Sequence record: NC_101835.1
Length of the DNA: 64,000 nt
Strand: one strand, 5' to 3'
DNA from: a phage
This document shows, one piece after another, positions 2,369 to 5,454 of this stretch. Position 1 is the first letter of the stretch, and the number at the start of each line of letters is the position of its first letter. The notes under the pieces are model-generated. The model did not search any database and was not told the DNA's origin. It saw only the letters and a list, made by a program, of their open reading frames with translations. A program made the position numbers and the translations under genes.

Positions 2369-2592
2369 TGAAAGTTAAAGTTTTAGATTCAAGCTTCTAT
2401 ATTGGTCAGGAGCCTTTAGTAGGAAAAGTGTTTACTGCTGTCCCTAACGAAGATTACCCTGACCTTTTAAAAATAAAAGGAGCAGATCTTATTGCCGCTG
2501 GTGCATCTCAAGAATGCTTTGACAGTCAGTGGACCTATAACTTTGCCCTAGGTGAGGATGTAGAGGTAGTGGAGGACGATCATGAAGGTTAA
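2368..2592 (+). CDS. small acidic protein, paralog family 1 (copy A)
   Basis: MKVKVLDSSFYIGQ..GKVFTAV..ADLIAAGAS..GEDVEVVE; clear paralog of 2582-2836. Confidence 0.55.
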   Translation: MKVKVLDSSFYIGQEPLVGKVFTAVPNEDYPDLLKIKGADLIAAGASQECFDSQWTYNFALGEDVEVVEDDHEG

Positions 2593-2836
2593 AATTCTTG
2601 ATTCTAACGTCTACTTGGGACAATCCTTCCTGAATGGAAAGGTCGTTCCTGCGGTATACTTTGAAGGGTTGCCGTGGGATGATCCTGTGCGGCAACATCA
2701 CAGTTATGTAGGCCACAACGTGGTGTTTATCTTGGGATCAGACCTGATCACCGCTGGTGCACCTGAATATTATTTCGGGGAAGAGTCCTACTATGCCTTT
2801 GGGGTAGGGTCAGATGCAGATATTGTAGAGCTGTGA
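2582..2836 (+). CDS. small acidic protein, paralog family 1 (copy B)
   Basis: MKVKILDSNVYLGQ..GKVVPAV..SDLITAGAP..GSDADIVE; GGAGGA RBS. Confidence 0.55.
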   Translation: MKVKILDSNVYLGQSFLNGKVVPAVYFEGLPWDDPVRQHHSYVGHNVVFILGSDLITAGAPEYYFGEESYYAFGVGSDADIVEL

Positions 2837-2848
2837 TGGGTAACCGTT

Positions 2849-3247
2849 GTGAAAAATAAACTGTTTAAAGTTACAATGAAAATTCGCGGGGCTTGGAGCG
2901 TAAAGCAAGGGCGTATTCCAGAATTTGAGAAAGACTTCTACGTAGTCTCCACCTCGGAGGAGGCTGCATGCTGGCAGGCTGGCTATGCCTATGCAAGAAC
3001 CTGGTACGAAGGATACCAGACTGGGGGCTATGACGGAGAAATTATCAGCAAGGGTGTAGAAGAAATTAATGTGTTGACAAGTGAAAAAGTTTTTGTTATA
3101 GTGCATCCAGATTCCAGAGTGAAGCATTACTGGAATGCCAGAACAAAAACTTGGACACCGTTTGCAGATTCTGCTACGCCACTTTTAAACCAGAAAGCTC
3201 TTGACTCTGCCCCAAGTTATGGGGTTGTTGAAGAAAAGCTAAACTGA
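2849..3247 (+). CDS. hypothetical protein, paralog family 2 (copy A)
   Basis: GTG start inferred; C-terminal HPDSRVKHYWNARTKTWTP matches HPHSNIAYYWDVLNNEWTP of 5059-5454. Confidence 0.5.
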   Translation: MKNKLFKVTMKIRGAWSVKQGRIPEFEKDFYVVSTSEEAACWQAGYAYARTWYEGYQTGGYDGEIISKGVEEINVLTSEKVFVIVHPDSRVKHYWNARTKTWTPFADSATPLLNQKALDSAPSYGVVEEKLN

Positions 3248-3561: not shown

Positions 3562-3590
3562 TTGACACAACGCTTCAGATTTAGTATCAT
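3562..3590 (+). promoter_or_regulatory. sigma70-like promoter (TTGACA-N17-TATCAT)
   Basis: TTGACA at 3562-3567, 17-nt spacer, TATCAT at 3585-3590, about 50 nt upstream of hpf-like ATG. Confidence 0.45.
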
Positions 3591-3639
3591 TGTTTTCAAA
3601 GAGAGATAGTTATTCCCTCTTCCTTAAAAGGAACACGTT

Positions 3640-3960
3640 ATGCAAATTGAAATCACTGGCAACAATGTAGAAATCACAGAAGGTATGGTATCTTTTATTT
3701 CCCGCAAAATGTCCAAGCTGGAGCGTTTACATCCCTCTGTTAACTATGCACGTGTGAGTGTAAAAGTTGAAAATGATCACCAGGAAGTTATGGCGTTCAT
3801 TTTTGACAATTCTGGAAAAGAAGTTATTGCCAAGGCTAAAGGCAGTGATGCTTACGAGGCAACTGACCGTATGGTAGATGTTGCAGCACGTCAGCTGGCT
3901 AAATGCGGTGGAAAGAAAGGTAAGGGGAAAGGCAAAGTAAAGATTGACTTTGGAGAATGA
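3640..3960 (+). CDS. hpf: ribosome hibernation promoting factor / RaiA (S30AE) family homolog
   Basis: N-terminus MQIEITGNNVEITEGM.. recalls bacterial HPF MQLNITGNNVEITEAL..; KLE and ARQLAK segments; lysine-rich tail. Confidence 0.7.
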   Translation: MQIEITGNNVEITEGMVSFISRKMSKLERLHPSVNYARVSVKVENDHQEVMAFIFDNSGKEVIAKAKGSDAYEATDRMVDVAARQLAKCGGKKGKGKGKVKIDFGE

Positions 3961-4097
3961 GGTGCTACAATGGGTGTGATTAAGAAATTAGTCCCAAATG
4001 TAGAGATTGCATGCTTTGAAATTATGTTTGCAATCGCAGTTGTAGTTAATGTGTTAGGTTACGGCTATTAATATCAAATAATTGAGGAGACCTCTAA

Positions 4098-4367
4098 ATG
4101 AAAATTAAATTATTCCAAACTGAGCTGGCAGACAAAAATTGTGGACTGGTTGAAGGCATGATTGTTGAAGCACAACCAGTGGACTATATGAAGGTGGTTC
4201 GTGATGCCCTAGGTGAAGGTTTTGATCTGATGGAGCCAGCTCTGCGAGAAGATGTTATCGAGATGGCTAAAAAGCACACACCTGAAGGTTTGGTGGTGTT
4301 TGTTGCACCGGGTAACGGAGAAGAGTTGATTGTAACTCCTGATGTGTATGAGATTGTAGAGGAATAA
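4098..4367 (+). CDS. small acidic protein, paralog family 3
   Basis: GAGGAG RBS; MKIKLFQ.. ending ..TPDVYEIVEE; shared architecture with 5534-5791 and 6471-6758. Confidence 0.55.
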   Translation: MKIKLFQTELADKNCGLVEGMIVEAQPVDYMKVVRDALGEGFDLMEPALREDVIEMAKKHTPEGLVVFVAPGNGEELIVTPDVYEIVEE

Positions 4368-4458: not shown

Positions 4459-4722
4459 ATGATTGTTTATTTTAAAACTTCAGGTGGATACCCTGATTCT
4501 CAAAGCTTGATCGGAAAAACGTGCACAGCATACTCACCTCTTGATGAGGAGGTAAGCGATATTTTACGAAATATGTATCGGATTGACCCCCAAGAAGCCT
4601 TTGATCAAAACCTTGTATTTGTCAAGGGCTCAGATATGAAGTCTTTGGGAGCATTCCCTGAAGCAGATGATGATGCCGTTTATTCGTTCATGACTCCTTT
4701 TGAAGCTATGGTTGTTGGGTGA
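4459..4722 (+). CDS. small acidic protein, paralog family 1 (copy C)
   Basis: GAGGTG RBS; GKTCTAY / FVKGSDMKSLGAF resemble family 1. Confidence 0.5.
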   Translation: MIVYFKTSGGYPDSQSLIGKTCTAYSPLDEEVSDILRNMYRIDPQEAFDQNLVFVKGSDMKSLGAFPEADDDAVYSFMTPFEAMVVG

Positions 4723-4726
4723 TAAT

Positions 4727-5059
4727 ATGAAAGTACGCTTTATTGGTGAAACAATTCCTGTGCATCTCCGGTCGCCTGAGGATTCTGCAGATCTTGCATC
4801 TCAAAAGGCGAGAGGTTATGATAAGAAAGTAACCTCAACCGATGTAGTGCTTGAGGCTACTAGTCTACCTGACCCTGCTGCATTCTTTAATCATTATGGG
4901 TACTATTTCAGCAATCTGATGAATATCGGTGAGCTTGTGTTTATTAGTGGTGGAGAAATTGTTAGCAAGCTTGGCGGCGATCCGGATATCTTTCATGAAA
5001 CCTGTCCTTTTGCATTTGTGGTAGGTTCAGATGTGGAAGTTATTGAGGAGGTGCGGTAA
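4727..5059 (+). CDS. small acidic protein, paralog family 1 (copy D)
   Basis: ATG at 4727 (track TTG 4700 less likely); C-terminal FVVGSDVEVIEE matches family 1. Confidence 0.5.
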   Translation: MKVRFIGETIPVHLRSPEDSADLASQKARGYDKKVTSTDVVLEATSLPDPAAFFNHYGYYFSNLMNIGELVFISGGEIVSKLGGDPDIFHETCPFAFVVGSDVEVIEEVR

Positions 5060-5454
5060 TGGTAAGCCTATACCGTGTTGAGTATAGCTCAGATACTGTA
5101 TACAACGTAAGAAGCAAAGATCGCAGCGACAGAGTGCAAGAAATGTATGTTCTTGCCGACAGTCCGTTATCTGCAGCGTTCAAGGCAGGGGCTCTTGCAT
5201 CTCGTTGGAAATTTGAAGGTGGATCTTTCTATGAAGAAACCCTTGAAGATTCTGTTGTTATTTCTTCTGTAGAGGTTTCAGATGACTACGAAGGGAAAAA
5301 GTTCGTAATGCGGCACCCACACAGCAACATTGCGTACTACTGGGATGTTCTGAACAACGAGTGGACCCCAGATCTTCAGAAGGCTACTGTGCTAACACCG
5401 TTTTTGGCAGATAAGTTCCCACCAGAAGGTAATTTATCCGCACTGTTTCAGTAA
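5059..5454 (+). CDS. hypothetical protein, paralog family 2 (copy B)
   Basis: GGAGGTG RBS; paralog of 2849-3247. Confidence 0.55.
   Translation: MVSLYRVEYSSDTVYNVRSKDRSDRVQEMYVLADSPLSAAFKAGALASRWKFEGGSFYEETLEDSVVISSVEVSDDYEGKKFVMRHPHSNIAYYWDVLNNEWTPDLQKATVLTPFLADKFPPEGNLSALFQ

Follow-up and report, generated by a model that had tools for sequence, protein, structure and literature searches.

A diverged homologue of the ribosome hibernation factor HPF, apparently universal and under purifying selection in rV5-like phages

The DNA analysed here (the window: 64,000 nucleotides of the phage sequence record NC_101835.1) encodes a 106-residue protein of the HPF type whose gene is under strong purifying selection and appears to be universal in the genus Vequintavirus, the rV5-like phages, and absent from the sister groups. 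We consider it probable, if by no means assured, that this selected HPF-family protein, produced from a promoter of the kind used by the host polymerase, binds the decoding channel of vacant ribosomes and keeps them silent, protected and probably monomeric. The gene itself is already known, having been annotated since the first rV5 genome and described and tested in 2019. The rV5 reference NC_011041 lists it as gp139/ORF144 and describes it as 'similar to Klebsiella oxytoca probable sigma(54) modulation protein'; in other records the product goes by the names 'sigma 54 modulation factor', 'hpf', 'ribosome hibernation factor' or 'RaiA'. The rV5 protein (ABI79209) was listed as a phage HPF among the virus-encoded ribosomal proteins (Mizuno et al. 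2019, PMC6375957), and the gene was reported, 'as already described', in five new rV5 isolates (Mathieu et al. 2020, PMC6969025). What is new here is the distribution across the genus, the purifying selection, the origin and divergence of the gene, the apparent retention of three of the four rRNA-binding basic residues and the lack of a phage RMF. The locus comprises the following features:

3562 to 3590, plus strand: sigma70-type promoter, with TTGACA at 3562-3567, a 17-nt spacer and TATCAT at 3585-3590, matching 11 of 12 consensus positions
3600 to 3633, plus strand: 5' leader with a small hairpin at about 3600-3620 and the Shine-Dalgarno sequence AAGGA at 3628-3632 (from sequence and folding)
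3640 to 3960, plus strand: coding sequence of the phage HPF homologue, ATG start, 106 aa plus stop, corresponding to rV5 gp139/ORF144
3640 to 3909, plus strand: HPF core domain, residues 1-90 (from AlphaFold2, Foldseek and pN/pS)
3910 to 3957, plus strand: predicted disordered Gly/Lys-rich tail GKKGKGKGKVKIDFGE, residues 91-106 (from pLDDT <50 and the alignment)

The rV5 counterpart (YP_002003641, ABI79209) is the same gene, with the same promoter and neighbours, and its product is 97% identical; the window allele reads GNNVEIT, like E. coli HPF, and so has an Asn more than rV5 (GNVEIT), and it carries R22 and V34 at positions where rV5 has H and A.

The original prediction of a phage-encoded HPF-family homologue was borne out by profile and pairwise searches. 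With the PF02482 Ribosomal_S30AE profile, whose gathering score is 23.7, the protein scored 56.7 bits and covered positions 1-83 of the 88 (E 4.2e-15); with the HPF/YfiA family model TIGR00741 of NCBIfam it scored 56.8 bits, the cut-off being 40.9. A phmmer search of the PDB placed the E. coli HPF chains 2rql, 4v8h and 6h4n on top (E 4e-15 to 2e-14), with phage residues 1-90 aligned onto residues 1-89 of E. coli HPF, and BLASTP against E. coli K-12 gave 40 of 92 identical residues (43%) with HPF and 25% identity with RaiA. The N-terminus of the translated ORF, MQIEITGNNVEITEGM, had been described as nearly identical to that of bacterial HPF, and is indeed HPF-like: MQIEITGNNVEITEG of the phage protein and MQLNITGNNVEITEA of E. 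coli HPF, to which it aligns, share 12 of 15 residues. The KLE and ARQLAK segments singled out at the same time are both present and in register, K26-L27-E28 occupying the same positions in the two proteins and A83-R84-Q85-L86 of the phage protein corresponding to A82-R83-Q84-L85 of E. coli HPF.

Within the family, the best-scoring model was that of the short HPF equivalog (NCBIfam NF007780), although its score of 65.2 bits lies well under the cut-off of 125; the RaiA/YfiA equivalog (NF007654) scored 22.8 bits against a cut-off of 158. Because the HPF equivalog score stays below this strict cut-off, the protein is, as judged from the profiles, a diverged member of the HPF type rather than an orthologue. 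Of the combined 'HPF/RaiA' identity that had been proposed, the HPF half thus stands and the RaiA half does not. The RefSeq name of the protein, 'ribosome-associated translation inhibitor RaiA', is a generic naming choice, orthology to RaiA being unsupported at only 25% identity. Pfam gave no second domain above threshold, including the C-terminal dimerisation domain of long HPF. The long form (about 185-190 aa; Firmicutes, Thermus and others) has a homologous N-terminal domain followed by a self-dimerising C-terminal domain, whereas the phage protein consists of a single domain and a tail that is predicted to be disordered.

The predicted structure points the same way. The AlphaFold2 model, built from a shallow alignment of five closely related sequences, had a mean pLDDT of 84, with block means of 83-95 across residues 1-90, and consists of a strand (2-8), a helix (14-30), three strands (34-43, 48-56 and 61-68) and a second helix (71-90), i.e. 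the strand-helix-strand-strand-strand-helix order expected of an HPF. From residue 91 onward the model falls below pLDDT 50 and gives no confident conformation, and the tail is predicted to be disordered. A Foldseek search of the PDB returned 36 chains at E <=1e-3, and all 36 were HPF, RaiA or protein Y (pY). The top match was Vibrio cholerae HPF (4hei_A; E 8.5e-10, TM 0.80/0.92, rmsd 1.1 A over 90 columns), and the E. coli HPF structures 2rql and 6h4n superposed on the phage model with rmsd 1.2-1.6 A. The first matches outside the family were dsRBD proteins, at E >1e-3 only. The fold and the profile match to the S30AE family, on which the original prediction had been staked, therefore both came out in its favour.

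Among cellular proteins the closest relative is E. coli short HPF (YhbH, 95 aa; 2rql, 6h4n), at 43-45% identity. The two have the same fold and are collinear over residues 1-90 with one gap of a single residue; they share basic positions of the K23/K26/R84/K88 type and a near-neutral core (pI about 6; 6.1 for the phage protein and 6.0 for E. coli HPF). They differ at R17, K80 and K89 of E. coli HPF, which the phage protein replaces by V, V and G, and in the tail. Counted from residue 89, the phage tail, CGGKKGKGKGKVKIDFGE, comprises 18 residues, among them 6 Lys and 6 Gly, in keeping with the lysine-rich tail noticed at the outset, and raises the pI of the whole phage protein to 9.0. Its length falls near the median for the family, 21, and its Gly-Lys repeat composition is unusual for the family. 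In short HPF, by contrast, the tail has about 8 residues of the form HK[DE]K...H, and H89, K90 and the terminal His are all missing from the phage protein. E. coli RaiA (YfiA/protein Y, 113 aa), which shares fold and family, resembles the phage protein in having a longer C-terminal extension than short HPF. Counted from the same alignment column, however, the RaiA tail has 26 residues and an acidic end (EEVEEE), whereas that of the phage is basic and unrelated in sequence.

In the structure of the E. coli 100S ribosome (Beckert et al.), the C-terminus of HPF lies on the mRNA path, where His95 stacks on G693 and mimics the -3 nucleotide, and Arg33 and Lys93 contact the E-site tRNA. Alignment with E. 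coli HPF shows that equivalents of His95 and Arg33 are missing from the phage protein, and that the phage tail extends 10 residues past the aligned end of E. coli HPF. By extrapolation only, these 10 extra residues could reach up the mRNA exit path toward the anti-SD/RMF region.

Individual residues were compared in an alignment that also held E. coli HPF, RaiA and 107 representatives of the family. The phage protein retains the family signature positions G7, T13, K23, K26, L27, R29, E44, G59, A64, D70, Y72, D76, R84, Q85 and K88. It departs from the family at position 17, which is Val (Arg/Lys in 85% of the family), at position 81, also Val (Lys in 78%), at position 51, which is Met (Glu/Asp in 80%), and at positions 89-90, where Cys-Gly replaces the His/Tyr followed by Lys of the family, position 90 being basic in 89%. 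Placed by the KLER and K-x-x-RQ motifs, the residues K27, R30, K84 and R87 of S. aureus HPF probably correspond to K26, R29, V81 and R84 of the phage protein, which would thus keep three of the four basic residues. In S. aureus HPF, a long form, mutational data assign ribosome binding and dimerisation to K27/R30 and K84/R87, which lie on the two helices (Basu & Yap 2016, PMC4889938). E. coli HPF likewise retains three of these four S. aureus-defined residues (with Gln29 as the exception), and the two helices carry seven basic residues in the phage protein and seven in E. coli HPF. R77, which precedes the lost K81 by one helical turn, was considered as a compensating residue and rejected as a general feature, since the copy in a divergent phage clade (clade B, see below) has L77 and T81.

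The sigma70-like promoter that had been attributed to the gene, with whose -35 hexamer the originally noted interval opens at 3562, withstood closer inspection. Sites of the form TTGACA-N17-TANNNT number 19 in the 64-kb window where 0.93 would be expected, a count reached in none of 100 shuffles, so chance does not account for the promoter-like site. The rV5 record NC_011041 annotates this site as 'Sigma70-type promoter; P144'. The promoter sequence is conserved in the seven other rV5-type copies compared, and the divergent clade B copy has a separate TTGACA-17-AATTAT site upstream. The AAGGA Shine-Dalgarno sequence lies 7 nt upstream of the ATG. The HPF gene of E. coli, in contrast, is part of the rpoN operon.

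The phage gene lies inside a run of small same-strand ORFs. None of the 10 flanking ORFs has a Pfam match and all of their PHROGs are of unknown function, so that no translation-related neighbour was detected among them; nor are there tRNA genes in the window. In the published account of the region, 88 ORFs, most of them small, form a block, and 33 sigma70-consensus promoters are predicted, with no expression timing given (Kropinski et al. 2013, PMC3606486); our literature search found neither published expression timing for rV5-like phages nor a Vequintavirus transcriptome. 'Early' expression is a reasonable expectation from the host-type promoters. In the 5' leader, the small hairpin was rejected as a regulatory element, its fold energies resembling those of shuffled sequences (z -0.95 to -1.8; -7 kcal/mol and z -0.95 in the window). 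The stem varies between copies with pairing kept, being AAGAGGG/CCCUCUU in rV5 and AGAGAGA/UCUCUCU in SYGMH1.

The window belongs to an rV5-like coliphage. Over the 2 kb around the gene it matches Escherichia phages SophiaRose, A51.2 and Murica at 100% identity, and 118 records of rV5-like phages (genus Vequintavirus) at 92-100%; at least 17 GenBank phage records (V18, slur16, Murica, MaxBurger, SophiaRose and others) contain a 106-aa protein of exactly this sequence. Phage records encoding an HPF at >=90% identity number 117, as do those encoding a primase/helicase at >=90% identity to that of the window, and the organism names of 211 more distant relatives (phages of Salmonella, Klebsiella and Cronobacter, Vibrio ICP1 and other phages) are absent from the HPF hit lists; the genus-wide distribution thus rests on matching counts and names rather than on a record-by-record comparison. 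Given the 117/117 counts and the absence of the names of the more distant relatives from the hit lists, this looks like a genus-level acquisition followed by universal retention.

A word-indexed protein search recovered the phage clade only, and the cellular relatives came from an exhaustive search of 1.84 billion representatives. The latter yielded a single close cluster, P0004 (65% identity, 103 aa), with all other matches at E >1e-10. P0004, the clade B copy, occupies the syntenic position in rV5-like contigs of 125-137 kb and also passes the HPF/RaiA family profile, with 50.6 bits. A 1160-aa candidate with 8 matched stretches (P0007) was discarded as spurious, being a PPC-domain repeat protein. 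On the cellular side, nothing came closer than E. coli HPF (45% over the core) and two representatives that share 85-87% identity with it. Other HPFs of the gammaproteobacterial type are 59-63% identical to E. coli HPF, so that the phage copy, at 45%, is the more diverged. The coliphage copies have been placed among gammaproteobacterial HPFs before (Mizuno et al. 2019, PMC6375957). To judge from these identities, the gene derives from a short-HPF gene of an enterobacterium captured by an rV5-like ancestor, and has since diverged strongly. A scan of IMG/VR added two further rV5-type copies and three distant matches (25% identity), and revealed no intermediate lineages bridging the phage clades.

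Among eight rV5-type copies, 24 variable codons differ synonymously only and 11 change the amino acid, which corresponds to a pN/pS of 0.10 for the whole gene, with values of 0.07 for the core and 0.28 for the tail; amino acid changes in the tail are limited to the last 4-5 residues. Between the rV5-type and clade B copies, core dN is 0.25, and synonymous sites have reached saturation, with 54.8 differences over 66.3 sites; owing to this saturation, dS between the two phage clades is not estimable and the comparison yields only the qualitative statement that dN << dS. HPF is the best conserved of seven neighbouring gene pairs in the same comparison, at 65% identity against 38-60%. A few copies are altered: phage inoa lacks 6 aa through an in-frame deletion, JES2013 starts with GTG, and the tail is frameshifted in APCEc02 and P0003. 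No premature stop occurs in the core of any copy compared. As for a possible partner, a tblastn search of 50,697 phage records with E. coli RMF gave no match.

The one experiment on this protein, of the kind proposed with the original prediction, was that of Mizuno et al., in which rV5 HPF expressed in E. coli was found in the crude extract and not in 70S or 100S ribosomes, and 100S levels were unchanged (PMC6375957). Short HPF promotes 100S formation together with RMF. The ribosomes had been prepared through a cushion of 500 mM NH4Cl (PMC6375957). The list of 71 proteins detected in ribosomes of cells expressing the phage HPF (Supplementary Data 4, PMC6375957) lacks host HPF, RMF and RaiA, all three of which were detected when the crude extract of these cells was analysed (Supplementary Data 5, PMC6375957). 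Because the host factors, too, were removed or undetected in the salt-washed preparation, the published negative result on ribosome association is uninformative, having no working positive control, and it is in this gap that residual value for further work lies. RaiA peptides were recorded in the ribosome preparations of two other constructs and not in that of phage HPF, a single unreplicated difference that we take as a hint only.

How the protein might act, and so bring about the direct manipulation of host ribosomes that a phage copy was originally taken to imply, can be outlined as follows. Host RNA polymerase would transcribe the HPF gene without phage factors, and the protein would probably be present from the start of infection. 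It would dock in the manner of HPF and RaiA, whose family binds the 30S subunit in the A/P-site tRNA/mRNA channel and blocks translation, and so lodge between the head and the body of vacant 30S or 70S particles; its basic tail would run along the mRNA path, past the E site, toward the anti-Shine-Dalgarno/RMF pocket. Idle host ribosomes, whether freed by loss of host mRNA or inherited from starved hosts, would then be held silent, nuclease-protected and probably monomeric, in a RaiA-like manner, instead of being degraded or locked into 100S particles in dependence on RMF. The lack of RMF in phage records and the failure of 100S levels to rise would be in keeping with monomers rather than with the promotion of dimers. 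Several observations count against this role, namely that the rV5 protein was unseen in 70S and 100S ribosomes (PMC6375957), that three conserved basic positions are lost and position 51 is Met, and that the HPF equivalog score is only half of the cut-off.

A different role, hypothesised by Mizuno et al., is that of an antagonist of hibernation, which would compete with host HPF/RaiA or block RMF through its tail; binding would be weak and displaced by initiation factors, and 100S ribosomes would be prevented or dissolved, returning stationary-phase ribosomes to phage translation. Competition with cellular HPF against ribosome dimers was suggested by the same authors (PMC6375957). The loss of three conserved basic core residues would fit a weaker, more reversible binding, and the longer tail falls in the same length class as that of RaiA. 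The RaiA tail is reportedly what excludes RMF. That YfiA antagonises HPF is stated, without further detail, by Beckert et al. The lack of an RMF gene in any phage record and of a 100S increase on expression would also be in keeping with an antagonist, as would the absence of RaiA peptides from the phage-HPF ribosome preparation alone, a single unreplicated observation. On the other hand, the sole experiment saw no interaction with ribosomes and no visible reduction of 100S (PMC6375957), the tail is basic and not acidic as in RaiA, with no sequence similarity to it, and the strong sigma70 promoter would be active in growing cells, which contain little RMF or 100S, unlike what a stationary-phase-specific function would call for. 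On this evidence we regard an antagonist as unlikely.

A more speculative variant, which we hold to be about equally doubtful, is that the protein occupies the decoding channel in a manner tuned to the phage and does not promote hibernation at all: the Gly/Lys tail would extend through the mRNA exit path into the anti-SD/RMF pocket, and the protein would keep ribosomes released from host mRNA as monomers shielded from nucleases, exclude host RMF, HPF and RaiA, and be displaced by initiation on phage mRNAs. Such easy displacement would follow from a weakening of three conserved core contacts. If true, this would be a dedicated viral factor for both anti-hibernation and ribosome shielding, a mode not demonstrated for any phage.

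It is also conceivable, and in our estimate rather improbable, that the protein has been neofunctionalised, having lost ribosome binding and turned its dsRBD-like HPF fold and basic tail to another RNA or protein target, such as phage or host mRNA, tRNA, or a component of host defence or a host ribonuclease. The absence of ribosome association in the sole experiment (PMC6375957) would be explained in this way, as would the identity of <=45% to every cellular HPF and the loss of several basic residues conserved in the family; dsRBD proteins are, moreover, the first non-HPF matches of the model, though at E >1e-3. Against this, the negative experiment had no valid positive control, most family signature positions are kept, including, apparently, three of the four ribosome-binding residues, and purifying selection is strongest on the core. 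That the gene is a decaying or neutral passenger of host origin with no role in infection, as the occasional altered copies (inoa, APCEc02, P0003, JES2013) might suggest, is highly improbable and effectively refuted by the selection data, since the gene is apparently present in every genome of the genus, its pN/pS is 0.10, and no copy compared has a premature stop in the core; synteny and a promoter of its own have, moreover, outlasted a split so old that synonymous sites are saturated.

Whichever way the protein acts, a diverged copy apparently present in every genome and under strong purifying selection implies that this lineage of lytic coliphages gains something from HPF. Occupation of vacant host ribosomes by an HPF-family protein, which we favour, would bear on a process, ribosome hibernation, that decides the regrowth of starved bacteria and the replication of phages in non-growing hosts; rV5-like phages, common in gut and sewage, serve in phage therapy and biocontrol. 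Acquisition of host-derived ribosome-associated proteins by large phage genomes is a phenomenon that extends to the phage-encoded bS21 and bL12 and to the HPF of Cronobacter phage GAP32 (PMC6375957). Of these, bS21 and bL12 have been shown to be incorporated into ribosomes, whereas rV5 HPF has not, and GAP32 HPF was reported as a separate, more divergent acquisition (PMC6375957).

Perfect matches to TTGACA-N17-TANNNT occur at 19 sites in the whole window when both strands are considered, against an expectation of 0.93; sites at 3-9 kb and 49-55 kb lie on the plus strand and those at 12-48 kb on the minus strand. This number and strand layout suggest that this section of the genome is for the most part driven by host-type promoters arranged in divergent blocks. 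The following features accompany the gene for the ribosome hibernation factor (HPF) in the window.

3600-3620, plus strand: small hairpin between the HPF promoter and the Shine-Dalgarno sequence, at the same position in the phage copies L001 and L014
3944-3971, plus strand: second promoter-like site, TTGACT-16-TACAAT, with 10 of 12 consensus positions and an extended -10 TG
3970-4071, plus strand: hydrophobic 33-aa ORF, phrog_15151, equivalent to rV5 gp140
4098-4367, plus strand: 89-aa gene, the second downstream of HPF

The candidate promoter at the 3' end of the HPF gene is embedded in the last HPF codons and overlaps both the HPF stop codon and the beginning of the 33-aa ORF, the start of which coincides with the -10 element. 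Evolution of the HPF protein is fastest over its last four to five codons, which read DFGE, DFWD, DFLD, YFGE or DFRE in the compared copies. At the other end of the gene, the transcript would begin at or close to the leader hairpin. The hairpin stem varies among phages with pairing preserved (AAGAGGG/CCCUCUU in rV5, AGAGAGA/UCUCUCU in SYGMH1) and contains one mismatch in the window; comparison of the fold energies with those of shuffled sequences showed that the hairpin was not significantly better.

The coding sequence itself varies among the phages. The HPF allele of the window has one additional Asn codon (GNNVEIT) compared to rV5, and three phage copies of the region depart as follows.

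inoa (L008), 595-894: in-frame loss of 6 aa (GNVEIT), with a GAAATCAC repeat on either side
APCEc02 (L009), 601-906: frameshift in the purine-rich tail, yielding ...CGRKKGKGERQSKD
JES2013 (L010), 601-918: GTG start codon

The same tail frameshift, again ending in ...CGRKKGKGERQSKD, was found in a metagenomic copy of the gene (P0003).

In the published expression experiments (Mizuno et al. 2019, PMC6375957, Supplementary Data 2-5), peptides of the host RaiA are listed for ribosomes prepared from cells that expressed viral bS21 or bL12 and are absent from the list for cells expressing rV5 HPF, a single unreplicated difference. The crude extract of the rV5 HPF-expressing strain contained RaiA, HPF and RMF.

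Several GenBank records (inoa_99, APCEc02_082, ECP32DNA_00138) give the 89-aa gene the label 'sigma 54 modulation factor'. A Pfam search with this gene produced zero matches, and it belongs to phrog_11868, a PHROG of unknown function; the label appears to have been misplaced in APCEc02 and later copied onward. Additionally, the PHROG search identified small-gene families, all of unknown function, with paralogues on both sides of the HPF gene.

2365-2592 and 2582-2836, plus strand: two adjoining phrog_5009 members
4459-4722, plus strand: weak third phrog_5009 member
2849-3247 and 5059-5454, plus strand: two phrog_7379 members

Finally, 18 GenBank records named 'Campylobacter phage', with Campylobacter jejuni as the host (MG065635, MG065653, MG065655 and 15 more), are 96-100% identical to rV5-like phages of Escherichia coli in the compared HPF region. 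The one record examined individually, D1, is flagged 'UNVERIFIED' and placed in Vequintavirus by the NCBI taxonomy. The assignment of C. jejuni as the host of these 18 rV5-like phages looks doubtful.
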